The position numbers were made by a program, and so were the translations under genes. Of a stretch of 64,000 nt of DNA, positions 22,093 through 40,658 are shown piece by piece. Below the pieces are notes generated by a model, which did not search any database, was not told the origin of the DNA, and worked only from the letters and a program-made list of their open reading frames with translations. The stretch is taken from the NCBI GenBank assembly GCA_965223505.1, contig CBDCWP010000042.1, positions 64,001-128,000 of the forward strand, written 5' to 3'. How positions within the stretch are numbered: the first letter of the stretch is position 1; the number at the start of each line of letters is the position of its first letter. This stretch comes from Planctomycetota bacterium (GTDB lineage Bacteria > Planctomycetota > PLA2 > JAEUHO01).

Positions 22093-22259
22093 GGGCGACC
22101 CTCGTGGTCGCCCAACCGTTCGTCGATCAGGTCCCGACACATCAACGGTCCGGGAGCGGGAGCGGGATGGATGTAGGGGCGACCCTCGTGGTCGCCCAAT
22201 CATTCGTCGATCAGGTCCCGACACACGCACGGTTGGGCAGCCACAAGGGCTGCCCCTAC
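22089..22259. repeat. REP cluster (BIME-like): two direct GTAG REPs and one inverted REP
   Basis: GTAGGGGCGACCCTCGTGGTCGCCC at 22089 and 22173, each followed by TTCGTCGATCAGGTCCCGACACA; GGGCAGCCACAAGGGCTGCCCCTAC at 22235. Confidence 0.92.
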
Positions 22260-25069
22260 TACCTCCGCACGTACTTGCCGCCGTTGGCTGCGGCCAGGCG
22301 CTCGAGCAGATCCGAGTCTCGGCCGATCGAGACGCAGTGGATCGCGATCCGCCGTGACTGGTTCAAGCGGCGCACGCCACGCAGGATGTCCGGGGTCGTC
22401 ACGAACTTCCCCGATCCCGGCGCGCCGTCGGACAGGACGAAGATCGTGTCGACGTCGTCCATGAGCAGCGCGAGCTCGACACCGTCGTAGAGATTCGTTC
22501 CGCCCGTCGGCTTCATGTCCAGCAGGTGCTTCTTCAAGATCCCACGGTTGCGGGACGACAGCTTCTGCAGCTTGTCCTTCCACGGGTGGATCGTGGTGTG
22601 GAACATCACCACGTTCACGCGCGCGCGGTCGTTGAGCTTGCCGATGGCGCCGAGCACCTCCCGGACGGCGACGTCGAGCTGATTGAGCCGCTCCTTCTCC
22701 TCGTCGTCGAGAGACGCCGCCGGCGAGCTCATCGAGCCGGACTGGTCGATGACGAACACGACGCGCTCCGTCTTCACCGGAATGCCGTAGAAGCCCGCAC
22801 CCGTGCCGCCGACGTCCGAGTCCACCCGCTCGGGAATCTCGACCGGCACCTCGAACGTCGCCTGGTTCTTGTTCCACCAGTCGCGCCAGATGCGCGGATT
22901 GTCGTACAGCGGCTGCCCGGTCAACCGGAACAGCGCGTCCGCGATCGCGTCGCGAATCCGCGGCACGTCTTCGTTCTCGAGCCGGTCGATGAGCGGCTCG
23001 ATGCCCGACTTGCAACGCAACGCCTCGATCGCTTGGATCGCCGCTAGGCGGACCTGCCACTCGTCGTGACGGAGACTCGGCGCGACCTTCTTGCACAGCT
23101 GTGTCTGGCCCGACGCCCGGGCGGCATCGAGCGCCAGGATGCGATCGATACGCCGCTTGGACGTGAGCAGCTTGAGCAAGAACGCGCGCGCCTTGTCGTC
23201 GCCCATGCCCACCCGTGCGAGCGCGCGAATGGCGGCCTGACGCGGGGCGTCCTTGACGGGATCCTTGCTCGCCTTCTTCTTCGCGAATTTCAGCAGCAGA
23301 GGGACCGCCGCCGGGTCGTCGTGATCGCCCAGGGCTTCGAGCTGCGCCGCGCGCGCGTCCGGGTCCTTTTCCTTCTTCGCGCGCTTGAGCAACGCCTTGG
23401 TCACGTCCCGGTGCGGGATCCCGGCCAGCACCTCCGCCGCGACGGCCCGCAACGCCGGCGACTTGGCGTCGACGGCCTTCACGATCGCGGCGACGCTCTT
23501 CGGCGCGCGAATGAACCGAAGCGCGTCCAGCGCGTTCGACCGGATCTCCTCGTCGAGCCCCTCGCGCTCCAACATGGCCAGCAGCGCTTCCACGCTCTTG
23601 GGATCGCCCTGCATGCCGAGAATCGTGACCACCTCCCGGGCCTCGAATCGCGTGAGCTCGGGATCCTCGGCGAGCCCGATCGCGACGTCGCGCGTCAAGG
23701 GGTGCCGCAGGTCGTGCAGGTCCTCCAGGACCTCCAGGCGCAACCGGCGGTCGTTTGAACGCGCGGCTTCCAGCATGAGCTCCATCGGCGGGCCGCCCTT
23801 CAGGTACCGCAGGCCGTATCCGTAGAGCGCTTCGCGAACGTCCTTGCGCGACTTGTACGCGTCGAGAATCGCCTTGCGGGACCCGTCGGTGCGCATCCCG
23901 GCGAGGTACATCGCGGCTGAGCGAACGGCCGTCGCCTCGCCCTTCGCCACGATCTTCTCGTAGACCCTCGCGCGATCCGGGTGCCCCATGCCTTGGAGCG
24001 CGTAGACGGCGGCGTTCTGGATGTTCGCGTCGCTCTGGCCGGCATAGCCCATGACGGCGCTGCCGCCGATCTTCAGGTAGCAGGCGTAACCCATGGCCTG
24101 GATCGCCTGCTGCCGGATGTACTTCTCGGCGTCCGCGTCCGCGATCCTCTTCAGCACACGAAACGCGTCGTCCGTGCCCACGCGGCCGATCTCCCGCACG
24201 GTGTCGTAGCGGTCCACGAACGACTTCGACGTCTTCTTCTCCTTCTCGAAGAGCTGCTTGAGCTCGGCCAGCGACTTGTCGGGTGGCGACGTCTTGCGAC
24301 CGCTCGACATGACGCCCCTGTTTTGCCACTTGCGCGGCTTCGCGTCGGGCACGGCCGCGGCTCGAACGAAGGTGAGCGTGCGACCCGAAGCGTCGGTTCG
24401 TTTCGCGATCCAGCCCTCGTCGCCGACGCGGAACGCGACATCGGGCTTGACCTGCTCGTCGTCGGCGCCGTACGTGTCGAACGTGCCGTTGCCGTTCAGG
24501 TCGACGAAGACCGTGTCGCGCGCGTGGTCGAAGCGAAGATCCGAGGTGTTGTCGCACAGCGCGACGAGGCGCAGACGGCCGCCCAGCACGGCACGACCGC
24601 GACGGTGCACGTTCGGACGCACCATCAGGGAGTCGATCGCGAGTTTCGGCCTGTACGTGAAGTGCAGCGAGACGGGCGTCGGCCGCTCGTCCCCCTCATA
24701 CGAGATCAAGACGGTCTGATCGCGTTCGTACTCGTTGCCCTCCTTGCGCATCCAGACGCGCTTCTCGTCGCGGAGCTGTCCGTCCATGTTGTGATCGACC
24801 CACAGCCGCGGCCCCTCCGGGCGCGCGTCCATGGCGATCAACAGCCCCCTGGTGCCGGCCATGACGATGCGGCTGTAGCGCGGCGTGCGAACGGCCGGAA
24901 GCGCGGCCAGGCCCTTGGGCGGGTCCGGTTTCAGCGGGACGCGGTTGGCGCCCAGCGAATCGATGCGGCCCGGCTCGAACGCCAGGTGCGCGACGATCGT
25001 CTCCACATCCTCGCCGTCGGCGCGCGCGGGCAGCGCGACGACGAGGCACGACAGGGCGAGGAGCAGCAT
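22259..25069 (-). CDS. Exported HEAT-repeat protein with C-terminal VWA domain
   Basis: Signal MLLLALSCLVVALPARA; many HEAT motifs; MIDAS residues DQSGS, GGTN, LSDG; ORF extension to 26410 is antisense shadow. Confidence 0.85.
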   Translation of the reverse strand: MLLLALSCLVVALPARADGEDVETIVAHLAFEPGRIDSLGANRVPLKPDPPKGLAALPAVRTPRYSRIVMAGTRGLLIAMDARPEGPRLWVDHNMDGQLRDEKRVWMRKEGNEYERDQTVLISYEGDERPTPVSLHFTYRPKLAIDSLMVRPNVHRRGRAVLGGRLRLVALCDNTSDLRFDHARDTVFVDLNGNGTFDTYGADDEQVKPDVAFRVGDEGWIAKRTDASGRTLTFVRAAAVPDAKPRKWQNRGVMSSGRKTSPPDKSLAELKQLFEKEKKTSKSFVDRYDTVREIGRVGTDDAFRVLKRIADADAEKYIRQQAIQAMGYACYLKIGGSAVMGYAGQSDANIQNAAVYALQGMGHPDRARVYEKIVAKGEATAVRSAAMYLAGMRTDGSRKAILDAYKSRKDVREALYGYGLRYLKGGPPMELMLEAARSNDRRLRLEVLEDLHDLRHPLTRDVAIGLAEDPELTRFEAREVVTILGMQGDPKSVEALLAMLEREGLDEEIRSNALDALRFIRAPKSVAAIVKAVDAKSPALRAVAAEVLAGIPHRDVTKALLKRAKKEKDPDARAAQLEALGDHDDPAAVPLLLKFAKKKASKDPVKDAPRQAAIRALARVGMGDDKARAFLLKLLTSKRRIDRILALDAARASGQTQLCKKVAPSLRHDEWQVRLAAIQAIEALRCKSGIEPLIDRLENEDVPRIRDAIADALFRLTGQPLYDNPRIWRDWWNKNQATFEVPVEIPERVDSDVGGTGAGFYGIPVKTERVVFVIDQSGSMSSPAASLDDEEKERLNQLDVAVREVLGAIGKLNDRARVNVVMFHTTIHPWKDKLQKLSSRNRGILKKHLLDMKPTGGTNLYDGVELALLMDDVDTIFVLSDGAPGSGKFVTTPDILRGVRRLNQSRRIAIHCVSIGRDSDLLERLAAANGGKYVRR

Positions 25070-25168
25070 CTGCTTCAAGGGCCCGGATTCTAGCCGTCGG
25101 AGCGCCGCGGCGCTGCACACGGGTCCCGTCGGACGGGTGGCGGAGAATCCGGAGCACCCGGAGGCTCC

Positions 25169-26866
25169 GTGCTCGCAACGCTGCTCTTTGAACCCGAGCC
25201 TCTCCTGGTCCTGGCGTTGGTCCTCGTCGTCGGCGTCGCCTCGGGCGCGATCGCGCGGCGTCTGGGCCTGCCCTCCGTCACGGGACAGATCCTCGCCGGC
25301 ATCTGCCTCGGCCCGATCTTCCACGTGTTCGAGCACGCGACGATCACGGGCTTCGCCCCCGTCATCGACTTCGCCCTGGGCCTCATGGCGGTCGCGGTCG
25401 GCAGCCACCTCCAGATCGCCCGGCTCAAGTCGGCGGCGCGCCGGCTCTCGCTGCTCATCCTGGCGGAGGCCCTTCTGACGCCGGCATTGGTGTTCGGGGG
25501 CGTCATGATCGTCGGCGGTGTGGAGTGGGATGCCGGATTGATCCTGGCGACGATCGCCGTCTCGACGGCGCCGGCCACGATCCTGGCGATCGTGAAAGAG
25601 ACGCGCTCGAAGGGGGTCTTCGTCAAGACGCTCGTCGCGGCGGTCGCGCTGAACAACATCGTGTGCATCGCGCTTTTCGAGTTTGCGCACACCGCGGCGC
25701 TGCAAGCCGTCGGCGGAACGAACGGCGTCTCGACCTGGGCGCTCTTGCTGGCGCCGCTCGAACAGCTTCTCTTCGCGGTCGTCCTGGGCAGCGGCGTCGC
25801 GATCCTGCTCGTCGTCGCGACGCGCCACGTGGTGCGCACCGATCAGATGACGACGCTCTCGTTCATCACCATCCTGCTGACGGCGGGACTCGCCGCGCAG
25901 CTGGGCGTCTCGTCGCTCTTGGCCTGTCTCGTCTTGGGCGTCGTCCTCGCCAACCTCACGCCGGACAAGGAAGAGATCGGTCACAGCGTCTTCGAGAGCT
26001 TCGAGACGGCGATCTTCGCGATCTTCTTCACGTTGGCCGGCATGGAGCTGAACTTCGACTACGCGCTGGAGGCCGGCGTGCTGGCGCTGGTCGTCGTCAG
26101 CATGCGCGGCGCCGGCAAGCTGCTGGCCGGACGATTCGCCATGGGCTTGGCCGACACGACCGACCGGGTGCGCAAGAACCTCGGGCTTGCGCTCCTTCCG
26201 CAGGCGGGCCTGGCGGTGGGCCTGATGCTGCTCGTCACGGAAGACACGCGCTTCCCGGAGGAGATGCGCGCGGTCATCCTCGCGACGGTGCTCACGGTCG
26301 TGACGATCAACGAGATCATCGGACCGGTCTGCACGCGCATCGCGCTCGCGCGCTCGGGCGACATCGGCCGCGACCGATCGCGCCTCATCGACTTCATCCA
26401 CGAAGAGCACATCGTGACGGACCTGGAGGCCGAAAGCGTCGAGGAGGCGCTCGAGAAGCTCACGGATGTGCTCGTGCGGACGAACGATCTGCAGGCGAAC
26501 CGCGACGCCATTCTCGCCTCGGCGCTCGAGCGGGAGTCACGCGGCTCGACGTGCCTCGGCGACGGCCTTGCGGTTCCGCATGCCGATCTCGAGGAAGGCG
26601 ACGAGATCGTGGGCGCGGTCGGCATCAGCAGCGAAGGACTTCACTTCGAAACGCCCGACGGCGCGCCTGTGCACTGCATGGTGCTGATCGCGACGCCGCC
26701 GTCCCAGCGCGACCACCGGCTGGAGGTCATCACGGCGTTTTCGCGCGCGATCTTCAGCGACCGCGGCATCGAGCAACAGCTCTACCACGCCCGGACGCCG
26801 GCGCACGCGTACGAGCTCCTTCATCACGAGGAGTCGGAGGACTTCAACCACTTCCTCGAAGACTGA
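25169..26866 (+). CDS. Cation:proton antiporter fused to a PTS EIIA (Fru/Ntr-type) domain
   Basis: LPSVTGQILAGICLGP, STAPAT, FFTLAG, LLPQAGLAVGL; C-terminal RESRGST..GLAVPHA. Confidence 0.9.
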   Translation: MLATLLFEPEPLLVLALVLVVGVASGAIARRLGLPSVTGQILAGICLGPIFHVFEHATITGFAPVIDFALGLMAVAVGSHLQIARLKSAARRLSLLILAEALLTPALVFGGVMIVGGVEWDAGLILATIAVSTAPATILAIVKETRSKGVFVKTLVAAVALNNIVCIALFEFAHTAALQAVGGTNGVSTWALLLAPLEQLLFAVVLGSGVAILLVVATRHVVRTDQMTTLSFITILLTAGLAAQLGVSSLLACLVLGVVLANLTPDKEEIGHSVFESFETAIFAIFFTLAGMELNFDYALEAGVLALVVVSMRGAGKLLAGRFAMGLADTTDRVRKNLGLALLPQAGLAVGLMLLVTEDTRFPEEMRAVILATVLTVVTINEIIGPVCTRIALARSGDIGRDRSRLIDFIHEEHIVTDLEAESVEEALEKLTDVLVRTNDLQANRDAILASALERESRGSTCLGDGLAVPHADLEEGDEIVGAVGISSEGLHFETPDGAPVHCMVLIATPPSQRDHRLEVITAFSRAIFSDRGIEQQLYHARTPAHAYELLHHEESEDFNHFLED

Positions 26867-26875
26867 TCTCGCGCG

Positions 26876-29800
26876 CTAGCGGAAGTACCAGGGCTGACAG
26901 AGGCCGGTTTGCTCACATGCGTAGCCGAGGCGCTGGATCAACGTCAGGGCCTTGTCGCGGATCGGATGCGAGACGATGCCGCTTTCGCACGTGCCGTAGG
27001 TCGACCAGGGACCACCGCAATCGGTACCTGTCAGGTTGGGATACGGCATCGGAACCGGCGACGGCGCCGCCGGGGTCACGCACGCACCGAGGCTCGTCGT
27101 CAGTCCCTGACCGATCGCCTGGTTGAGCAACGACTGTGACAACGCGTTGTCGTGCATCACATATGCGTCGATCGGCGTGGATGCGCCGGCGTACGGGCTG
27201 TCGTAGGCGTGGGTGGCGTACGAAGGGGTACTCCCTGGGCGGTGCGTCGGATCCACCACCAACGGTGCCATCTCGAACGGACTCATGTGTGCGTTCGTCA
27301 CGAACGCGTCGGACGACGTCGACGTGCCGCGCGTGGCGTTCATCAGGTTGCTGCCCGCGTCGTGCCGGGTCCCGCGGCCGACGTACAGGGCGGCCCCGAC
27401 ACTGCCTCCGATCTTGAGCTTGCCGTCCTCGTACCCGATGACCGAGTGGTTCAAAGGCCTTTCGCCCGCGAATGACTCGACCGTCGTCGACGCTTCGTCG
27501 CGGAGCTGGAGCTCGAATTCGAGGCGATTGTCGTGGCACGCGTAGAAGATGCCTTCCTCTTCCATGAGCCGGTTCACGAAGTTCAGGTCGCTCTCGTTGT
27601 ACCGCGCGTTGTAGACCCGGCCCGTGATCACCGGCCGATCGGGATCGCCTTCCACGAACATCGTCGCCAGCACCTCGCTCTCGCGCAGGATCAACCCCAG
27701 CCCCGCGCCCTGCGCGCCGTTCCCGGAGCCGGAGACGGCGTACGAGCTGACGCGCGCCTTCTCGAGCTTGATGGTGTAGCGCCCCATCGGATCGGCGGCG
27801 TTGATGGGGTCGTTGCCCGCGAAGGCGAGCGGGTTGCCGTCGGATGCGGCGTCGCCGTACTTCCCCAGGGGATCGCGACAGGCGAACTCCGCGTCTCGGG
27901 GGTCGCGGTACCGGGCGCGGTGGTGGTAGAGCGCGGTGAACGTGTCCCAGCGCCGGCCGTGCTGCAGGAACGGGTTTTCCAGCGGGCTGCCGGCGGTTGC
28001 GGCGAGCGTCGTCGCGTCGTGCACGGAGGGGAAGTCGAGCACGCCGTAGGCGTTGAACTCCACCGGCGCGCCTTGCTCGTTCACGAGGTGCGTGACGTTG
28101 CCCGACGGTCCGCGCAGATGGAAGAAGTAGGCGTCCGGCGTGATGTCCCTGCCGGAGTCGGCGAACATCGCGTGGATCGAGTCGGTGCCCTCGCCGTAGA
28201 CGAATTCCCGCGTCAAGGTCTCCGGCAACGCGGCGGTCGAGACGCGCTCCTCGACGACGTGTTCGCCGTCGTACACGTAGTGCTCCGTGCGCAGGCCCTT
28301 GCCGCCGCCGCTGAACTCCTTGGACACGCGCCGTCCGAGCGCGTCGTAGGTGTTGACGCCGACAACCGCGTTGGGGTTGACCGCGAGCCGAACGGCGCGT
28401 AGACGGCCGAACCCGTCCCACTGCAGCAAACGCACGGGGTCCTCCGAGCGCATGCCGCAGCCCGTGCCGCCGCCGTCAGCCTGATACGGCGCATCGGCGA
28501 TCGCGTGCAGCGGCGTGCGATTGATCGCCCGGTTGGTGGTCCCGCCCGCGCCCAAGTCCTCGAAGACATTCTTGATCGCCTGCGCGCCGTCATACGTGAC
28601 GTCGACGTTTCGTTGCGCGGCGCCGCCGAGGCTCGTGGTCTCCATCGCGTCTTCGGTCGTGAGCCGGCCACGCGAGTCGTAGCTCCAGGCGAACGCCCGC
28701 GACATCTGCGGACCTCCGGGTGTGACATAGGCGTACGCCGCCGTGGTCATCTGGTCCGTGCGATTGCGCGCCGAGATCTGTACGCCGCCGACGCCGGCGC
28801 CCGGCTGATCGATGTGCGCCACGCTCGCGATCAACAGCTTGCCGTCGAACGTCGCGGTCGTTCGGCTGCGTTGCGTCCCGCCGATGAGCCTCTCGACGCG
28901 CAGCACCTGCGCCGTCCCCAGTCGTCGCAGCAGGATCTCGAGACGGTTCGGGGTCGCGGCGGGTTCGACGATGCCGGTCAGCTGATTGTGATCGTCGTAC
29001 TCGTACCGCAGCACGCGTCCCTCGGGGAAGTGCAGCGTGCTGCGCCGATCCGCGTCGTAGCTCGTTCCGGTCGCGACGCCGTTTTGCACCTCCTCGACGC
29101 GGCGGGAGAGCGAGTCGTACAGGAAGCGCACCGTCGCGTCGTCGCCCGCGTCGCCGGGCTCGTTGTTGTCCGTGCAGACGATCTTGCGGGAGAGCCCGTC
29201 GTAGTCGTAGGTGAGCTCCGTCGAGCCGACGTAGAGCGGCAGCGTCCCGCCGGCGATGGTCCGCGTCGGGTCGGGCGCGACGGTGTGACTGCGCAGCCGG
29301 TCGAGAGCGTCGTACGTGAACGTGTGGACGGTGCCGTTTTCGTCCGTCGACGACGTGACGCGGTGGTCGCGGTCGAACGTCCAGGTGCACACGCCGCCGT
29401 CGGGGTTCGTGCGCGAAACGCGCCGGTCGATCGCGTCGTAGGCGTACTGCGTCGTGTTGCCGGCGTCGTCTGTGCGCTCGGCGACGCGCCCGTTGGGATC
29501 CCACTCGCTCAGGAGCCGAATCAGACCGTCGTTGTTGTGGCTGTTCGTAGTGTCGAGCGCGTTGGCGCCCTCGCCGCCGACGCGTAGCTCGCGCGTGACG
29601 AGCCACGGGCGATCCACCCCGTCGTAGTCCACGAACAGACCGTTGCCGTGGCCGTTGATCGGTCCCGGAAACAGCGCGAGCGGGTCGCTGATCAGCACCC
29701 CGCGCGCGTCGTACTGCGCGGTCAGGTTCCCGCGGCTGTCGTACTCGAAGCGCGTGGTCTGTCCCTTCGGATCCGTGACGCGGGTGACGCGGTTCAGGAC

Positions 29801-32800
29801 GTCGTAGACGTAGTGCGTCGTGAGCGTCACCGGCGCGACGATCGACATCTCGCTCACGTGCACGGCTTCGGTGCGAACGACGTTGTCGTTCGGATCGTAG
29901 AGAAACCGTGTCTCGGTCGGCGTGGGCCCGGCGGGATCCACGATCGGCAAGCGCCGTGTGATCAGTCGGTCGGCGCCGTCGTAGACCTGCGCGTAGGTCG
30001 CGTCCCGGTCCTCGTGACGAAACGTCATGCGCCCGTTCGCGTCGTACTCCAGGATCGTGTTGATCTTGCCGTCGCCGGGGACCAGCGGCCCTTCCGTGAC
30101 CGTTGCACCGCTCGAGGGCGTCACGCCGGTCGCCAGGAACAGATCGCGATCGATGCGGAAGAGTCGGCTGTGCTCGTCGTACAGGAAGTCGCTCCCCGCA
30201 AGCAGAGTGTGGGCGCCGCCGCCCACGGCCGGACCGCGCGCCTCGTAGCGCACGCGGTTCCCCACCGGGTCGTACGCGCAAGTCTCGACGTTGCCTTCGC
30301 GGTCGGTGACGGCGATGCGCCGGTCGAAGCCGTCGTAGTCGTAGCGCGTGACGTCGCCGCCCTCCGCGTCGATGACCTGGACCCGGTTGCGGTTGTCGTC
30401 GTACAGGAAGGTTGCCGTCGAAGCATCGTTGCCTTGCCCGCCGAGCGTTCGGGCGTCGCACAGGTCGCGCGCGTCGTAGCGGAACAGACGGCGGTTCTCG
30501 CTCTGTTGGCCGGAGGTGGACGCGGGGGTGGCCACCTCGACGACGTTCTGGCTCGCGTCGTAGACGTACCGCGTCTCGAGTGCGGTCGGCTGCGCCGACG
30601 CGGGCACGGCCGGATCGCGCCGCGCATCGTGGGTCGCGGCGATGCGATCGTCGAGGATGTCGTACGCAAAGACGTGCGTGAAGACCGCGAGCCCGGGCAC
30701 GACCCCACTCTGGTGCGTGGTTCGGTCGGTCTTCTGATTCTCGACCTCGACACGGACCACGTTGTCGTTGGCGTCGTAGATGACGTCGCGCCGGTAGCCG
30801 TGCGACTGACCTGCGTCCACGACCGGCGCCTCGACGCGCACGATCTGATCGAGGGCGTTGTAGATCGTGATGAACTCGCTGCCGCGAGCGTCGTCGAATC
30901 GAATCTCGTTCCCTCGGCGGTCGCGCGTGAACGTGTGCGTTAGCGCCAGCGCCGGGCCCGGGTCCTGTCGGCGCGGTCCGATCGACGCGTCTTCGACGAC
31001 CTGCCGCAGGTATCCGCCGGTCGTGCCGTTGCGGCCCGGCGTGACGTCCTGGCCGTCGCCGTCGGGGTCGTTCTCGGGGAAGTAGGCAAACGTGTCCTGG
31101 TTGCCGCGCGGGTCCTCGAGCAACGTCAGCTGACCCAGGTCGTTCCAGACACAAAGCACCACGATGCCCTGCAGGTTGTCACCCTCGGTCGCCGCCTGCT
31201 CGGACGTGATGTCCAGGTGCACCGTCGGCGTGTCGACGCGTACGGGATTGCCCATCGACTGGTCGATACGACCGTCGAAGTTCAGGTCGCCCTGGTTGAG
31301 CAGGCCGGGCGGGATCGTGATGCCGAACTGGGCGGCCTGCGGCGGCGCGACCGTGTTCTCCATCCAGTCGTAGTGGTAGGTCGTGGTGTACCGCGCGGCC
31401 GACTGCGGTCCCCCGTTCTGGGGTAGATACGTGGCGTCGTTACCGCGCGGGTCCGTGACGGTGCGCACGAGGTTGTAGAGCGGCTCGTACGTGTAGGTCG
31501 TTCGCAGCTGCAGCTGATCGCCGCCGCGCCCGTCCGGGACGCAGGTGCGCGAGAGGAGGTTGCCGTGCCGGCAGCGGTCGGGGCTCGTGCTGTCGTACAC
31601 GAAGTCGACGCGGTTCCCGAGGGGCGTGGTGATGCGCGTCGGCAACCCGTCGCCGTTGTAGGTCACGTCGGTCGTGAAGCCGCCGCCGGACGGGGACTCG
31701 ACGGCGCGCAGACAGTGGCCGTCGCCGTCGTGGAAGTACTGGGTGGTGTTGCCGTTGCGGTCCACGACGGTCGTCATGGACGTCGATCCGGGCGGGCCGG
31801 CGACGGCGCCGAAGTCGTAGGTGTACGACAACGCGCCGCCCGCGGGCTGACCGGACGCGTTCGTCCCGCCGATCGTCTGCGAGACGACGCGGTCGAACCC
31901 GAACCCCGCGGCGCCGTACGTCACCTGGCGCGCCGGCGTGAGACTGGCATTCGCGACCTCGTTGGGTCGGATGACGCGCAGGAGGTTGCCGTTGAGACGG
32001 GGATCGCCGAATCCCGACGAGTAGGCGTACCGCTCGATCTTTCCGTTGGGGAAGTCGTTGCCCGTCGGTGTGCCGTTCACGGGCGGCGTTGTCACGGCCA
32101 CGAGATTGCCCGCCGCGTCGTAGTCGTAGGCGACGACGCGCCCGGTGAAGTCGGTCATCGAACGCAGCCGTCCCTGCCCGTCGTAGACGAAGTCGACGCG
32201 GCGGCCGAGCTCGTCGGTAATCGAGGTCGGAAGGGCGCCGGTGTAGCTCCATTGCGTTCGGTTGCCGGCACGGTCGTCGCGATGCTGGACGCGTCCCTGG
32301 AGATCGAACCGGTGCACCGTGCCGTGGGGCGAGCGCAACGACCATCCCAGCACGTCCTTCACGAGGGTCTCGAAGCAGCCGGTGACCGGCCCATACGATC
32401 CGCCGCCGATGTCCGGGAAGACGTCGAACCGCCCGGTCCCCCAGTGCACCTCGACGTCGCCGTTCAGCCGTTCGACGAGGCGCACGAAGAGGCTCGCGTC
32501 CCATCCGCGCCCCAGCGGACCGTTCGCGTCCGACTGGCTGCGGTACACGCGCACGAACCGCCAATCCGCACGCCGACAACGGATGCGCATGTCGACGCGT
32601 CGAAGTACGAGCTCGCCGCTGTGCAGCAACACGCGGCCGACTGCGTCCGACGCATCGATGCCGAAGCTCGGACTGCGCGGAGGCTGGATCACGAACGGCC
32701 CGGTCGGCAGGATCAACGTGGTGCCGCCGCCACCGCCGCAACCCAACGACAACGAGAGCAGGGTCAGCGCGCCCATCCATCGGAGGCACTTCGGGTCGGC

Positions 32801-32809
32801 GTTGCGCAT
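26876..32809 (-). CDS. Rhs/YD-repeat protein with lipoprotein-like signal, DUF6531-like N-terminal region and mosaic C-terminal extension
   Basis: LSLG-C lipobox; GPLGRGW; dozens of YDxxGN/YDxxDR repeats; core end RYRDP..F..RDPLG..N..AFAGNDPINAADPMG. Confidence 0.93.
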   Translation of the reverse strand: MRNADPKCLRWMGALTLLSLSLGCGGGGGTTLILPTGPFVIQPPRSPSFGIDASDAVGRVLLHSGELVLRRVDMRIRCRRADWRFVRVYRSQSDANGPLGRGWDASLFVRLVERLNGDVEVHWGTGRFDVFPDIGGGSYGPVTGCFETLVKDVLGWSLRSPHGTVHRFDLQGRVQHRDDRAGNRTQWSYTGALPTSITDELGRRVDFVYDGQGRLRSMTDFTGRVVAYDYDAAGNLVAVTTPPVNGTPTGNDFPNGKIERYAYSSGFGDPRLNGNLLRVIRPNEVANASLTPARQVTYGAAGFGFDRVVSQTIGGTNASGQPAGGALSYTYDFGAVAGPPGSTSMTTVVDRNGNTTQYFHDGDGHCLRAVESPSGGGFTTDVTYNGDGLPTRITTPLGNRVDFVYDSTSPDRCRHGNLLSRTCVPDGRGGDQLQLRTTYTYEPLYNLVRTVTDPRGNDATYLPQNGGPQSAARYTTTYHYDWMENTVAPPQAAQFGITIPPGLLNQGDLNFDGRIDQSMGNPVRVDTPTVHLDITSEQAATEGDNLQGIVVLCVWNDLGQLTLLEDPRGNQDTFAYFPENDPDGDGQDVTPGRNGTTGGYLRQVVEDASIGPRRQDPGPALALTHTFTRDRRGNEIRFDDARGSEFITIYNALDQIVRVEAPVVDAGQSHGYRRDVIYDANDNVVRVEVENQKTDRTTHQSGVVPGLAVFTHVFAYDILDDRIAATHDARRDPAVPASAQPTALETRYVYDASQNVVEVATPASTSGQQSENRRLFRYDARDLCDARTLGGQGNDASTATFLYDDNRNRVQVIDAEGGDVTRYDYDGFDRRIAVTDREGNVETCAYDPVGNRVRYEARGPAVGGGAHTLLAGSDFLYDEHSRLFRIDRDLFLATGVTPSSGATVTEGPLVPGDGKINTILEYDANGRMTFRHEDRDATYAQVYDGADRLITRRLPIVDPAGPTPTETRFLYDPNDNVVRTEAVHVSEMSIVAPVTLTTHYVYDVLNRVTRVTDPKGQTTRFEYDSRGNLTAQYDARGVLISDPLALFPGPINGHGNGLFVDYDGVDRPWLVTRELRVGGEGANALDTTNSHNNDGLIRLLSEWDPNGRVAERTDDAGNTTQYAYDAIDRRVSRTNPDGGVCTWTFDRDHRVTSSTDENGTVHTFTYDALDRLRSHTVAPDPTRTIAGGTLPLYVGSTELTYDYDGLSRKIVCTDNNEPGDAGDDATVRFLYDSLSRRVEEVQNGVATGTSYDADRRSTLHFPEGRVLRYEYDDHNQLTGIVEPAATPNRLEILLRRLGTAQVLRVERLIGGTQRSRTTATFDGKLLIASVAHIDQPGAGVGGVQISARNRTDQMTTAAYAYVTPGGPQMSRAFAWSYDSRGRLTTEDAMETTSLGGAAQRNVDVTYDGAQAIKNVFEDLGAGGTTNRAINRTPLHAIADAPYQADGGGTGCGMRSEDPVRLLQWDGFGRLRAVRLAVNPNAVVGVNTYDALGRRVSKEFSGGGKGLRTEHYVYDGEHVVEERVSTAALPETLTREFVYGEGTDSIHAMFADSGRDITPDAYFFHLRGPSGNVTHLVNEQGAPVEFNAYGVLDFPSVHDATTLAATAGSPLENPFLQHGRRWDTFTALYHHRARYRDPRDAEFACRDPLGKYGDAASDGNPLAFAGNDPINAADPMGRYTIKLEKARVSSYAVSGSGNGAQGAGLGLILRESEVLATMFVEGDPDRPVITGRVYNARYNESDLNFVNRLMEEEGIFYACHDNRLEFELQLRDEASTTVESFAGERPLNHSVIGYEDGKLKIGGSVGAALYVGRGTRHDAGSNLMNATRGTSTSSDAFVTNAHMSPFEMAPLVVDPTHRPGSTPSYATHAYDSPYAGASTPIDAYVMHDNALSQSLLNQAIGQGLTTSLGACVTPAAPSPVPMPYPNLTGTDCGGPWSTYGTCESGIVSHPIRDKALTLIQRLGYACEQTGLCQPWYFR

Positions 32810-32881
32810 CGGGCCGCCTTTCCGCATTCGTCCGAATGCCGGCAACAAGTATAGGAATTCGCCGTTTGCGGCGGCAATGCG

Positions 32882-34402
32882 CTAGCTTCGAAGGCTGAGG
32901 GCTTCGAGCACGTGGGCGGTACCTACGCGGTCCTCGGCGCACAGATCCGCGATCGTTCGCGCCACCTTGAGACAGCGATGCACACCGCGCGCGCTCAGGC
33001 CCAGCCGTCGGGCGCTCGAGATGAGCTGGCGCTGCGCGGTGTCGTCCGCGCCGACGCCGTCGGGTAGACGCGACGCGGCGATTCGGGCGTTCCAGGGTTC
33101 ACTCGAGCCGAGCTGTTTGGCGCGGCGCGCCTGCGCCTTGCGCGCCCGCTGCATCGCACGCGGCTCGAACGGCGTGCTCGCCCGCTCCTTCACGAGCACT
33201 TCCGGGTCGACCGGCGCCACGTCGACCCGTAGATCGAATCGATCCCGAAGCGGGCCCGAAATGCGCTGCTGATAGCGCAGGCGTGCGCTGCGCGCACAGG
33301 TACAGCGTCCCTCGACGCCGAACCATCCGCACGGGCAGGGATTGGTCGCCGCGATCAGCAGGATGCGCGCCGGGAAGCGTGCGCGTCCGGCGGCGCGTCC
33401 GATGACGATCGTTCCGTCTTCGAGGGGTTGCCGCAGCGCTTCCAACGAGACGCGGTTGAACTCGGCCAGCTCGTCGAGGAACAGCACGCCGTGATGCGCG
33501 AGGCTGACCTCGCCCGGTCGCGGGTGTGTTCCGCCCCCCACCAACCCCGCCGTGCTGGTCGTGTGATGCGGTGCGCGGAACGGGCGGCGCGTCACGAGGC
33601 CCCCTTCGAGCAGCCCCGCAATGCTGTGAATGCGACTGACGTCGACGGCTTCGTCTTTCGTGAGCGGCGGCAACACGCCGGCGAGGTGTCGTGCCAGCAG
33701 CGTCTTGCCCGAGCCGGGCGGACCGGTGAGCAGCAGGTTGTGTCCGCCGGCGGCGGCGATCCACGCCGCGCGCAATGCCGCCGGCTGTCCGCGCACCGGT
33801 GGTTCGCGATCACCTTCCCACGGCGCGGGTTGCCATGCGCGTGCGGGCTCGGGCTCCAGTGGTTCCTTCTCGGTCAGGTGACCGACGGCGGCGCGCAGCG
33901 AGTCGACGCCGACGACCGTCAACCCGTCGACCGCCGCGGCTTGCGACGCGTTGCTCGATGGCACCAGGGCGCGACGCACGCCGGCGGCGCGGGCAGCCTC
34001 GGCGGCGGCGAGCACGCCGCGCACGGGTCGGACGTTGCCGTCGAGCGTGAGCTCGCCCAGACACAGGCACTTGGCCAGCGCGTTGCGTTCGGCGCCGAGG
34101 ATGCCTTGGACGTCGAGCAGACCCAGCGCGATGGGCAGATCGAGTGCGGCGCCTTCCTTGCGCGCGGCGGCGGGCGCGAGGTTGACGGTGACGGGCCGAA
34201 ACGGCCAGGGCCAGTGGCCGTGGTGGATGGCGCTGCGGATGCGTTCGCGGCCTTCGCGCAGCGCGCTGTCGGGCAGCCCGACGATGCGAAACGAACCTGC
34301 ATCGCCCCCTTCCTGCTCACCGGCAACGGAGACCTGGACGTCGACGACTTGCGCCGACGCACCGACGACGGCCGCGCCGGCCACCCGGGTGAAGATGCGC
34401 AT
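32882..34402 (-). CDS. comM: YifB/ComM family Mg-chelatase-like AAA+ ATPase
   Basis: IVGLPD, VNLAPA, GGHNLLLTGPPGSGKT, RPFRAPHHT, PGEVSLAHHGVLFLDE, NPCPCG. Confidence 0.95.
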   Translation of the reverse strand: MRIFTRVAGAAVVGASAQVVDVQVSVAGEQEGGDAGSFRIVGLPDSALREGRERIRSAIHHGHWPWPFRPVTVNLAPAAARKEGAALDLPIALGLLDVQGILGAERNALAKCLCLGELTLDGNVRPVRGVLAAAEAARAAGVRRALVPSSNASQAAAVDGLTVVGVDSLRAAVGHLTEKEPLEPEPARAWQPAPWEGDREPPVRGQPAALRAAWIAAAGGHNLLLTGPPGSGKTLLARHLAGVLPPLTKDEAVDVSRIHSIAGLLEGGLVTRRPFRAPHHTTSTAGLVGGGTHPRPGEVSLAHHGVLFLDELAEFNRVSLEALRQPLEDGTIVIGRAAGRARFPARILLIAATNPCPCGWFGVEGRCTCARSARLRYQQRISGPLRDRFDLRVDVAPVDPEVLVKERASTPFEPRAMQRARKAQARRAKQLGSSEPWNARIAASRLPDGVGADDTAQRQLISSARRLGLSARGVHRCLKVARTIADLCAEDRVGTAHVLEALSLRS

Positions 34403-37188: not shown

Positions 37189-40100
37189 CTACGGCAGACC
37201 CCACAGCACCCATGCGGCCCAGTAGTACGGGTGCTTCCACTTGGCCTGGCCACGGACGTGCGCCTGCGCCCCGCGCAAGGCCTCGGCGGCACTGACGCCC
37301 GCGCCCGTGTTCCACAGCTCGTAGAACTTCAGCATGAACGCCTGCGTCGCCGCGTCATCGACGTCCCACAGCGAGCACACGACGCGGGATGCGCCCGCGT
37401 ACATGAAGGCGCGCGTCAGACCGACGATCCCCTCGCTCGCGACCAGCTGCCCCGTGCCGGTCGCACACGCCGAGAGAACCACGAGGTCGGCGGGAATGCG
37501 CATGCGCAGGACTTCGAGACACGTGAGGAAGCCGTCTTCTCCATCGGCGGCCGAAAGCGCCAACGCCGAGATCGCCGGACGCTCGGGATCGACGATGCCG
37601 TGGCACGCCAAATGGACCGCACGCCAATACCCTTCGCCCGCCAGCGCCTTGCGCAGCGCGGCCTCGTTCGCGTCCGCACCCAGGAGCGCGACGCTTCCGA
37701 TCTGCGTGGCCTCCTTGCGCGTCGCGGGGAGCGGCGCGAGCCTGCGCCCGCGTGCGTAGACCTCGCGCGCCTTGTCGGAGACGGAACCGTAGTCCGGATC
37801 CCCCACGGCGAGCACCTTGGTCGCGTCGACCGGTTGCTGCACATCGCGCTGCCAGACATACGCGCTGCCCGACGGCGTGAGCACGACGGGGAGCTCGAAC
37901 AGCGCGCCGAACGGGACGTACCCGAGCGGCCCGTCCGGCGAGACGAGCACCAATTGGGTCGCCGCGTCGAGCTTCAGCGGCGCGACCAACCGTGCCGCGA
38001 GCTTCGCGATCCGCGCCGCGGCATCCTCGGTGCGATCGTCGAATCGCGCGAGCGCACACAGCTCGACGATCGGCATCGCCGCGCCGAGCGATACGACGCG
38101 CACCTCGTCGCGCGTCAGCACGAACGCGACGACCTCGTCGAGGCAGAACCCGTAGAGCACGAGGACATGACCCGGCGCGAGCCGGCCCTGGATCTCCTCG
38201 ACGGGCGCCGCGCGCGGGTAGAAGACGCCCGCCTCGCGTTTCGCCTCGCGCTGGATGCGCTCGGTCACCGTCCGTAGCACCGCGACGGTTCGATCGAGCG
38301 TCTCCGCGGCACTCCGGGTCGCGCGCAGGTTGCCCGTCTCGAGCGCCGCGACGTAGCTCGCGCGCGCGGCCGCGTGCTCGGCGTGGGCCTTCGATTCCAG
38401 CTGGCGCAGCTCGGCGGGCAGATCGGTCCAGCGCATCGACTGTCGCCCGCCGAGCGCTTCGAGCAACGCGCCGGCGCGGCCGTCTTCGATGAACGTCAAG
38501 GCCTCCGCCGTTCGCTCGAGCTGCACCGCCGCGAGCGCCCCCACGGCATAAACGTCGCTGTGCTGGGCGCGCGCGGTCGCGCCCAGCGAGCCACCGAGCC
38601 CCTCCAATCCGGAAAAGACGTCCTGCAGCTCGCGTGAGGCTTCACGCGCGCGCTCGAGCGCCCGTTGCGGCTCGCCCTGTTCGAGCCAGTGCAGCCCGAC
38701 GTCGCTCAGCAGCCTGACGAGGAGCGGTGTCGCGCGCAGCCAACGCGCGTCACGGATCGCCTTCTCGAGGTCTTCGATGCCGGCGGCGTCACCCGACTTC
38801 AAACGCAGGACACCCACGTTGCCGCGCGCGCTCGCAATGGCCGCGCGGCCGCCGATCGACTCGTACATGGCCAGCGCGCGCCGTGCCGTCGTCAATGCCC
38901 GCTCGGTGTCCCCGAGGAACTCGTACATCACCGCGATGTTGCCGAGTGTGGTCGCAGCACCCGCGACGTCGCCGATGCCCTCACGGGTGGTTCGCGCTCG
39001 CTCGTAGAACGTGAGCGCCTCTTCGTGATCGCCGAGCTCGTGATGCAGGTTGCCCATGTTGCTCAGCGCGACAGCCGCCCCCTGGCGGTCGCCCATCTCG
39101 GATTGCAGCGCGTACGCCTGCTCGAAGAGGGCCAGGGCCCGCACGCGGTCGCCGGTCTTGGCGTAGACGTTTCCGAGATTCACGAGCACGGCCGCCATGC
39201 CCTGCCGGTCGCGGGTCGCCTTGCGAAGCTCGAGCGAACGCTCGTAGCTGCGCAGGGCCTCCGGATACTCGCCGAGCGCGTCGTGCGACATGCCGACATG
39301 CCCGAGCGCGAACGCCTGCCCCCGCCGATCGTCGATTCGAGAATAGAGCGCGAGGGCACGGCGCGCGTGCGCCAGCGCCTTGGGATAGTCGCCGCGCCGG
39401 TAGTGCACGACCCCGATGTTGGCCAGAATCGTCGCCTCGCCGGCGACGTTGCCCGACGTCTGCGCAAGCTGCAGGCCGCGACGTAGATGTTCGAGCGCCG
39501 CTTCGTACTCGCCGAGGAAGCGGAGGATGCTCCCGATCTGCCCGAGCGTGATCGCCGCGTCCGCCGCGTTGCCCCGCGCTTCCTGTTGGGCGAGCGCGCG
39601 CTTGGCGTAGTCCAGTGCTTCGGCGTAGTTGCCCGTCGACTCGTGGATGCCTGCGATACGGGCGGTCATCCGCGTGACCCCGCGTCCGTCCCCGAGCTCG
39701 GTACGAATTGCCAGGGACACGTTGGCCATCTCGAGCGCGCGGGCGTGCTCACCGAGCAGATAGTGAACGAGGGAGATGTTCTCGTAGAGGACACCGAGGC
39801 TGTGCCGGTTCCCGGAGGACTCGGCCAGCGCAAGCGCCCGGACGTAGGCGTCCTGCGCGTCCGCAAACGCGCCGAGCTCGCTCTTGAAGTTGCCGAGCGC
39901 GACGAGCGCGACGATCAGCTCGCGTGGGTCCCCGATCGCCTCGCGGATCGCCACGACGCGAGTCAGTGCCGAGCCCGCCCCTTGCACGTCGCCCCGGTGC
40001 AGCTTGATGCGACTCGACGCCGTCAGCAGCGCCGCAGTCTCGCGTCGCCACCCGATGCGTTCCGCCGCGTCGCGCGCAGCCTCGAGCGCCTGCTCCGCCT

Positions 40101-40563
40101 TCGCGAGCTGATTGGCGTGCAGCAGCGCGATGCTCCGACAGGTCATGAGCCGAATGCCGGCCACCGACGGTGCGGTCAGGTCGACGGAATCCGTGAGCGC
40201 CAGCACCTCCGCGGAGGCGCCTGCGTCCCGGGCCTTCTCGACGGTCTGTAGCAGCTTGCGCTCGGCGCCGTCGTGCGCCGCGCCACGTCGCGCCGCGACG
40301 TACCCTTCGAGCTCGTCGGCGACGGACGTTTCTCGCCCGAAAAGGACCGCCGCGTCGTGCTCCCCGCGGGCACACAGCTCGTCCGCAACGAGCCACGGGT
40401 CGGGCACCGCGGCGCTGCCGAGCGCGCGCAGGGACGCCGTGTCCTTTGCTCGAGTGGCCGCGAGGACGCGGTCTGCCGCCTGCGCCGGGGTTGCGGACGG
40501 TTCCTTCGCCCACGCGGATGCGCCGGCGAGCACACAGAGGAGCATGACGAGTGCCGAGCGCAT
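37189..40563 (-). CDS. TPR-repeat protein with C-terminal CHAT (caspase-like) peptidase domain and signal peptide
   Basis: About 12 TPR units; VSPDGPLGYVPF, VHLACHG, LSACATG, SLWDVDD, HPYYWAAW. Confidence 0.93.
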   Translation of the reverse strand: MRSALVMLLCVLAGASAWAKEPSATPAQAADRVLAATRAKDTASLRALGSAAVPDPWLVADELCARGEHDAAVLFGRETSVADELEGYVAARRGAAHDGAERKLLQTVEKARDAGASAEVLALTDSVDLTAPSVAGIRLMTCRSIALLHANQLAKAEQALEAARDAAERIGWRRETAALLTASSRIKLHRGDVQGAGSALTRVVAIREAIGDPRELIVALVALGNFKSELGAFADAQDAYVRALALAESSGNRHSLGVLYENISLVHYLLGEHARALEMANVSLAIRTELGDGRGVTRMTARIAGIHESTGNYAEALDYAKRALAQQEARGNAADAAITLGQIGSILRFLGEYEAALEHLRRGLQLAQTSGNVAGEATILANIGVVHYRRGDYPKALAHARRALALYSRIDDRRGQAFALGHVGMSHDALGEYPEALRSYERSLELRKATRDRQGMAAVLVNLGNVYAKTGDRVRALALFEQAYALQSEMGDRQGAAVALSNMGNLHHELGDHEEALTFYERARTTREGIGDVAGAATTLGNIAVMYEFLGDTERALTTARRALAMYESIGGRAAIASARGNVGVLRLKSGDAAGIEDLEKAIRDARWLRATPLLVRLLSDVGLHWLEQGEPQRALERAREASRELQDVFSGLEGLGGSLGATARAQHSDVYAVGALAAVQLERTAEALTFIEDGRAGALLEALGGRQSMRWTDLPAELRQLESKAHAEHAAARASYVAALETGNLRATRSAAETLDRTVAVLRTVTERIQREAKREAGVFYPRAAPVEEIQGRLAPGHVLVLYGFCLDEVVAFVLTRDEVRVVSLGAAMPIVELCALARFDDRTEDAAARIAKLAARLVAPLKLDAATQLVLVSPDGPLGYVPFGALFELPVVLTPSGSAYVWQRDVQQPVDATKVLAVGDPDYGSVSDKAREVYARGRRLAPLPATRKEATQIGSVALLGADANEAALRKALAGEGYWRAVHLACHGIVDPERPAISALALSAADGEDGFLTCLEVLRMRIPADLVVLSACATGTGQLVASEGIVGLTRAFMYAGASRVVCSLWDVDDAATQAFMLKFYELWNTGAGVSAAEALRGAQAHVRGQAKWKHPYYWAAWVLWGLP

Positions 40564-40658
40564 GAGCCCGCAGGGTAGCCCGGGCGTCGGTGGCCCGGCA
40601 AACGTCCTGCGCGCGGCGCCGTCGGCCGCCACGTGAGGTGGTCCGACGGCTCGTCATC

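Follow-up and report, generated by a model that had tools for sequence, protein, structure and literature searches.

A planctomycete Rhs protein with a mosaic of short sub-domain pieces in its cargo position

The analysed window, 64,000 nucleotides (nt) of a Planctomycetota genome, is GC-rich (0.65–0.73) and carries on its minus strand an Rhs/YD-repeat gene whose product ends in a 301-residue extension. Rhs and other polymorphic toxins combine a constant delivery shell with one swappable toxin domain that is accompanied by an immunity gene. In the present gene, sub-domain pieces of secretion-needle proteins form a string in the place of that domain, and no immunity gene accompanies them. The extension is numbered from ext 1 to ext 301, the first nucleotide of residue i lying at 27781-3(i-1), and the gene is organised as follows.

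26876..32848, minus strand: Rhs/YD-repeat gene, open reading frame (ORF) of 1990 amino acids (aa)
27782..27793, minus strand: DPMG, aa 1686–1689, core end and expected autoproteolysis site
27713..27778, minus strand: ext 2–23, weak Hcp-like block, YTIKLEKARVSSYAVSGSGNGA, located with a 34-sequence Hcp profile
27602..27709, minus strand: ext ~25–60, end of the VgrG OB-fold (gp5-like) domain, core FVEGDPDRPVITGRVYNA
27467..27601, minus strand: ext 61–105, middle block of the VgrG gp27-like hub, YNESDLNFVNRLMEEEGIFY plus ~25 further residues
27368..27445, minus strand: ext 113–138, motif of an unnamed family (family X), SVIGYEDGKLKIGGSVGAALYVGRGT
27122..27367, minus strand: ext 139–220, Ser/Thr/Pro/Ala/His-rich stretch without a match, its frame supported by GC content at third codon positions (GC3)
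27020..27121, minus strand: ext 221–254, N-terminal motif of Tox-PAAR-like (DUF4150), CVTPAAPSPVPMPYPN
26879..27019, minus strand: ext 255–301, tail with four cysteines, without a match

DUF6531 lies at aa 75–140 of the Rhs protein (Pfam), and the YD/RHS-repeat shell is recognised by RHS_repeat (PF05593, E 2.8e-62, in 9 stretches) and by TIGR01643 (E 3.2e-61). The Rhs-associated core model TIGR03696 scores 35.1 bits against a cut-off of 32.5 over aa 1623–1689, with DPMG at its end. Read by eye, the N-terminus is hydrophobic and signal-like and is followed by Cys-Gly-rich residues (a run of Cys and Gly), and the Pfam scan found no N-terminal PAAR. The protein is a genuine Rhs polymorphic-toxin-type gene product. 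Cleavage at DPMG is inferred from the family; the residue after the glycine is R, and the family motif DPxG(L) has L at this place.

After DPMG, 301 codons run in one frame without a stop, up to the stop codon at 26876–26878. The extension has a GC3 of 0.87, the core one of 0.90, and every 40-codon window reaches at least 0.75; the extension thus carries the coding signature of the genome in the Rhs frame, and the GC3 profile rules out a frameshifted relic. The 301-residue cargo is one real coding frame. An earlier reading of the sequence alone had described this frame, and the translation of the ORF confirmed its coordinates, the position of DPMG and the uninterrupted extension of 301 aa; the four strings that it quoted are all found there.

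The cargo is a mosaic of short sub-domain pieces from different families, placed end to end. From ext 2 to ext 138 the recognised pieces adjoin almost without unassigned residues, all of them in sense and in frame. No single coherent toxin domain was found, only sub-domain matches to three or four families, and when the extension was cut into sliding windows of 45 aa, 10 of the 18 had no Pfam family at E ≤ 10. The stretches ext 139–220 and ext 255–301 gave no match in these windows or in searches of proteins, metagenome contigs and phylum genomes. AlphaFold2 (AF2) on the extension as a single sequence, without alignment, returned a pLDDT of 31, which is weak as evidence on the fold.

These results bear out the central claim of the sequence-only reading, an in-frame mosaic from different families with abrupt boundaries, through both the Pfam windows and the local profiles; the alternative that it named, one domain with a confident fold, was checked and does not explain the cargo. 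[quoted passage not shown]

The resemblance to two distant parts of VgrG, also claimed in that reading, is strongly supported by Phage_GPD, TIGR03361, solved chains and a local profile. The Pfam model Phage_GPD scores 34.8 bits against a cut-off of 30.1, over 28 residues only (profile 117–144 of 305), and TIGR03361, whose cut-off is 186, matches in two stretches with 54.3 bits. In solved VgrG1 chains, compared with a query of 305 aa that included DPMG, query residues 37–65 correspond to VgrG 426–454 and residues 61–91 to VgrG 143–173; from the order of these matches, the two VgrG blocks are inverted. A local VgrG profile built from 30 of the best database matches scores 33.0 bits at ext 35–59 (profile 435–458) and 40.0 bits at ext 61–102 (profile 153–194), with one residue between the two matches and no third stretch even at E ≤ 100. 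For the hub piece, hhalign gave 97.7% over 49 columns. The order of a whole VgrG/TssI protein, with gp27-like hub, gp5 OB-fold and beta-helix, is not present.

The same two pieces dominate the database matches. The best 150 matches comprise 301 matched stretches, 140 of them in the OB piece (median start ext 25, end 59–61) and 144 in the hub piece (median start 55, median end 98). Within the OB piece, a VgrG from the same order shares 16 of 18 residues. Conservation within the family was ranked over 671 alignment columns of 29 phylum VgrGs, chosen by TIGR03361 and so independently of the extension. The hub block VQYRETDFDFVSRLLEEEGIYYFF is the most conserved 24-aa window among them and the OB block GQEVLVTFLEGDPDRPIVTGSVYN the second most conserved non-overlapping one, so that the cores of both pieces are the top two conserved windows of the VgrG alignment. 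By the consensus of the 29 VgrGs, the string 'RVYNARY' fits the OB block at its end (G-x-VYNA) as well as the sequence that leads into the hub (R-x-Y-x-x-x-Y-x-E-S/T-D), and this overlap may mark a microhomology junction. A complex prediction with residues 1–480 of VgrG alignment A1 and ext 1–140 scored 0.00 without controls and speaks neither for binding nor against it.

The Hcp piece is weakly supported. Pfam gave no Hcp match in the extension, either with the whole protein or with the 45-aa windows, and the full T6SS_HCP domain is not present. A profile of 34 phylum Hcps, fetched by PF05638, has its best match exactly at ext 2–23 (3.3 bits, E 0.0023 for a single target), where columns 99–120 align and the consensus is kept at 11 of 22 residues. 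When the first 45 residues were shuffled 1000 times, with 730 of the shuffles scored, the real score was never reached. We also considered whether the block belongs to the VgrG OB piece; only one stretch among the best 150 VgrG matches extends to ext 11–15, and ext 1–15 is therefore not VgrG. Within Hcp, the block ranks 93 of 142 windows in conservation and is not highly conserved. A general rule of conserved blocks only is true for VgrG and fails for this piece.

The DUF4150 resemblance of the sequence-only reading receives moderate support from sub-cut-off Pfam windows, a local profile and one exact motif. Two 45-aa windows match Tox-PAAR-like at E = 0.0013 and 0.0015 (profile 10–27 of 108), and a local profile of metagenomic Tox-PAAR-like proteins scores 26.4 bits at ext 221–254 (profile 9–43 of 127). 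The string PVPMPYPN occurs exactly in metagenomic proteins that are full Tox-PAAR-like domains. The full domain, of about 108 residues and typical of effector N-termini, is not found here (19.2 bits against a cut-off of 31), and the motif sits near the C-terminus of the Rhs protein.

Family X comprises unnamed proteins of about 550–650 aa, and its local profile scores 38.5 bits at ext 113–138. Eighteen consecutive residues of the piece are identical to metagenome locus L108 and to P0152–P0154; at the DNA level the identity is about 83%, with mostly synonymous differences. The conservation of the block was estimated from 5 sequences found via the motif itself and is hence biased. A PEP-CTERM-type protein from this phylum carries the motif as well. 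A role of family X as a T6SS effector was rejected by context, as both examined loci have housekeeping neighbours and no T6SS genes. With one piece from a family lacking T6SS context, the theme of the cargo is not purely that of an injection machine.

Loci L108, L109, P0152–P0154 and L175 share a near-invariant motif, 'GYEDGKLKIGGS(V/I)GAALGVG', followed by a DxNxDG calcium-site-like motif. A beta-helical protein of PEP-CTERM type contains one version of it, and no Pfam family covers the 'GYEDGKLKIGGS(V/I)GAALGVG' family.

No full-length relative of the extension was found among 1.84 billion representatives. This search gave 1461 matches at E ≤ 0.001, none at or below 1e-10, and the best 150 of the 1461 aligned at one or both VgrG-like stretches. 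No such relative was found among the Rhs-sized proteins of a 5.8-billion set, nor in 400 phylum genomes. In the comparison with 40 relatives, 21 of 41 genomes gave a match, to the Rhs core only, save one match to the VgrG motif. A species-genome collection yielded 80 kept loci, all matching the VgrG region alone, and metagenome contigs yielded 9 loci with the PAAR-like and family X motifs only. The nearest Rhs core on record has 32% identity; the lineage is therefore poorly sampled, and the lack of relatives is weak as an argument. The Rhs tips in 11 relatives' genomes are all different, one of them an Aspzincin peptidase and one Tle1-like, and none of the 11 matches a needle family. Likewise, PF05954, PF04717, PF13665 and PF05638 are all absent from the families listed for 71 database Rhs relatives. 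The earlier expectation of a constant core with variable fragment strings in related Rhs genes was not borne out, in tips or in database proteins.

Three genomes of the same family (G009, G020 and G014) have 23, 20 and 10 matches, respectively, to the end of the Rhs core. Many of these lie in short open frames close together and look like arrays of displaced rhs tips.

The genome itself (5.15 Mb in 44 contigs) is 92.5% complete, at which level absence is not proven; with this limit, no Hcp (PF05638), no VipB (PF05943) and no PAAR-like domain was found in it, and its sole match to VgrG (PF05954) is the cargo fragment itself, so that the set of Hcp, VgrG and sheath expected of a T6SS was not recovered. 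For comparison, Hcp occurs in 69 of 301 genomes across the phylum and in 2 of 40 from the order, and VgrG in 26 of 151 phylum genomes. Searches of the genome for donor DNA or protein of any part of the extension (tblastn and short blastn) returned chance-level matches only, and the donors that the sequence-only reading had proposed to look for did not appear.

Two neighbouring genes flank the Rhs gene.

25169..26866, plus strand: Na+/H+ exchanger with a C-terminal PTS EIIA-2 domain, convergent with the Rhs gene (Pfam)
32882..34402, minus strand: ComM/YifB-type Mg-chelatase-like ATPase, upstream neighbour (Pfam)

The stop codon of the exchanger lies 10 nt from that of the Rhs gene. As the downstream gene is convergent, with only this space between the stops, the usual site of an immunity gene leaves no room for one, and no cognate immunity gene was found directly downstream. 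The only minus-strand ORF in this place, a small one, has a codon composition of antisense type.

The gene resembles the Rhs/YD-repeat polymorphic toxins, both T6SS-linked effectors and Sec-exported proteins of WapA type, in its DUF6531, its YD shell, its DPxG-ended core and its variable C-terminal cargo. It differs from them in that the cargo consists of sub-domain pieces of several families in place of one toxin domain and that no immunity gene follows. It also has no N-terminal PAAR, and no T6SS was found in its genome. It shares with the specialised ('evolved') Hcp, VgrG and PAAR effectors the presence of needle and effector sequence in one polypeptide. According to PMC3482391, those effectors carry a complete needle protein at the N-terminus and the toxin at the C-terminus, and VgrG and PAAR modules are placed at the toxin N-terminus. 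Here, in contrast, needle pieces of 22–45 aa stand in the cargo position and out of order, and none of them reaches its family cut-off as a whole domain.

Scars of rhs rearrangement are out-of-frame remnants downstream of the gene. The present case shares with such displaced or 'orphan' tips a change at the rhs 3′ end, but every piece lies inside the ORF, in the same frame and orientation and with coding GC3. Microhomology-mediated template switching joins short templated pieces from several loci directly and in non-colinear order, and it is not known to favour sense orientation, a kept frame or conserved blocks. The short, non-colinear and directly joined pieces found here are like the products of such events, although the genome offers no donor loci for comparison. 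The 3′ end of rhs is described as a site of recombination and tip replacement in PMC3482391. Full-text literature searches, covering listings and the beginnings of abstracts, and passages of PMC3482391 yielded no account of needle fragments placed where an Rhs protein has its cargo.

We tentatively propose that the cargo is a one-off patchwork tip, produced by illegitimate recombination from a T6SS-linked rhs locus and without a needle-related function. It is most likely a degenerate or neutral tip, at most a generic peptide toxin, and none of its pieces would suffice to restore a part of the needle. The patchwork would have been built through several events of illegitimate recombination or template switching, in an ancestor or donor whose rhs gene stood next to an hcp-vgrG-PAAR locus, where T6SS-linked rhs genes usually lie, and one piece would have been copied from one other gene. 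The rhs gene would then have been retained in, or transferred to, a lineage where no T6SS was found. Its protein would be exported by the general pathway, the Rhs shell would enclose the unfolded cargo, and self-cleavage at DPMG would release it. Should the tip be a product of recombination and nothing more, it would document with unusual clarity the in-frame stitching of short templated pieces at an rhs 3′ end.

Several points weigh against this origin. A neutral patchwork does not predict that all pieces are in sense and in frame, that the four recognised pieces over ext 2–138 directly adjoin, or that the two VgrG pieces coincide exactly with the two most conserved windows of VgrG. Nor does it predict that 18 identical residues persist in the family X piece while the DNA differs mostly at synonymous sites. 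Orientation and frame, abutment, the conserved blocks and the synonymous differences would fit selection on the peptides. In addition, the origin story rests on no observed donor, and the lack of relatives counts for little when even for the Rhs core the identity to any relative stops at 32%.

In a second explanation, which we regard as unlikely, the cargo is an array of functional mimics. Conserved needle peptides would compete for contacts in a rival cell and poison the assembly of its T6SS or phage tails, or trigger sensors of tail proteins; if the producer itself has no T6SS, it could do without an immunity gene. This explanation would account for why conserved blocks were chosen, why the frame was kept and why an immunity gene is missing. 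The two VgrG pieces correspond to the two most conserved blocks among 671 alignment columns, the pieces all abut in one frame and in sense orientation, and neither an immunity gene nor a T6SS was found in the producer. The two VgrG pieces also keep 14 of the 17 invariant columns of VgrG alignment A1 that fall within them; A1 was chosen by similarity to the extension and is biased. On the other hand, the array is a singleton without conserved relatives and rests on a single genome, its Hcp-like block has weak support and is not among the conserved ones, another piece belongs to a family without T6SS context in the two loci examined, about 130 residues have no match at all, and a Sec-exported Rhs protein would still need a delivery route into the cytoplasm of a rival. 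Its stronger form, in which a selected array of the Hcp-like piece, both top VgrG blocks and the PAAR-like piece acts as a broad-spectrum dominant-negative poison of T6SS or phage-tail assembly or as bait for sensors of tail proteins, is more doubtful still. If it were true, this would be the first effector aimed at the injection machine of a rival by mimicry; no such description was found in the literature searched, passages of PMC3482391 included.

It is improbable that the 301 residues fold as a unit into a single new toxin domain, descended from a spike protein, whose needle-like motifs would be re-used structural elements. Such a domain would agree with the uninterrupted frame and its coding signature, and some VgrG alignments do continue weakly beyond the pieces, as for ext 54–233 against VgrG 143–306 (one of the best 150). 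But the VgrG pieces are inverted and one residue apart, and the local VgrG profile finds just two stretches even at E ≤ 100. A piece of an unrelated family stands in the middle, no confident fold was obtained, and the immunity gene that would accompany a toxin is missing.

A standing fragment-capture or memory system that repeatedly takes up pieces of foreign injection-machine genes is very improbable, and the cargo as the product of such a system is not supported. The mosaic itself is what such a system would leave, but two samples show no variation, needle families are found in 0 of 11 relatives' tips and 0 of 71 database Rhs proteins, the junctions have no repeats or other signatures of capture, and the Pfam-scanned neighbouring ORFs include no recombinase or reverse transcriptase. 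The proposal of the sequence-only reading that the gene accumulates short fragments over time thus finds no donors, no variation between samples, no needle tips in relatives and no structured repeats at the junctions.

The repeats seen at the junctions of the pieces are all short and look like chance. One of them, a direct repeat of 25 nt (80%), links 27335–27359 and 27797–27821, where ext 142–149 ('AGSNLMNA') resembles the end of the core ('AGNDPINA'). We considered ext 142–149 as an old core end inside the extension and rejected it, as the repeat does not surpass the 13 other families listed.

An artefact of assembly or binning, that is, a chimera of reads from several organisms, is equally far-fetched. 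Independently built contigs of three runs (two samples of one study) contain the stretch with 0 differences. A single 10,850-nt contig of run X1 covers 26300–28600 without a difference, and contigs of run X2 cover 26300–27631 and 27647–28414, with the core/extension and VgrG/VgrG junctions included. The second sample also holds parts of the stretch with 0 differences, the PAAR-like motif among them. These contigs speak for the contiguity that the sequence-only reading wanted confirmed, at a low depth (about 5x); as all runs belong to a single study, and the sample with the best match may itself be the source, they are not fully independent. Typical short sequencing reads are longer than the 66–135 nt of the pieces, so that single reads would probably span the junctions. 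GC3 and frame are continuous, both flanks are ordinary genes on the same contig, and a chimera of 66–135-nt pieces all in frame is very unlikely.

A minus-strand ORF at 22259–26410, with HEAT repeats and VWA, overlaps the plus-strand exchanger (25169–26866) by about 1.2 kb. In the zone of overlap, codon composition and Pfam favour the exchanger, and on these grounds the first ~400 codons of the minus-strand ORF are probably non-coding.

The genome encodes a second Rhs-like protein, on contig C5 (L110:77-1576, minus strand), in an open frame of about 2009 aa. The stretch before its C-terminal end has no clear DPxG motif, and the end itself is not a toxin tip but a complete Secretin domain (PF00263, E 1.7e-23, profile 1–168 of 169).

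About 4 kb from the Rhs gene, a minus-strand gene at 37189–40632 encodes a 1147-aa protein with TPR and a CHAT protease domain.

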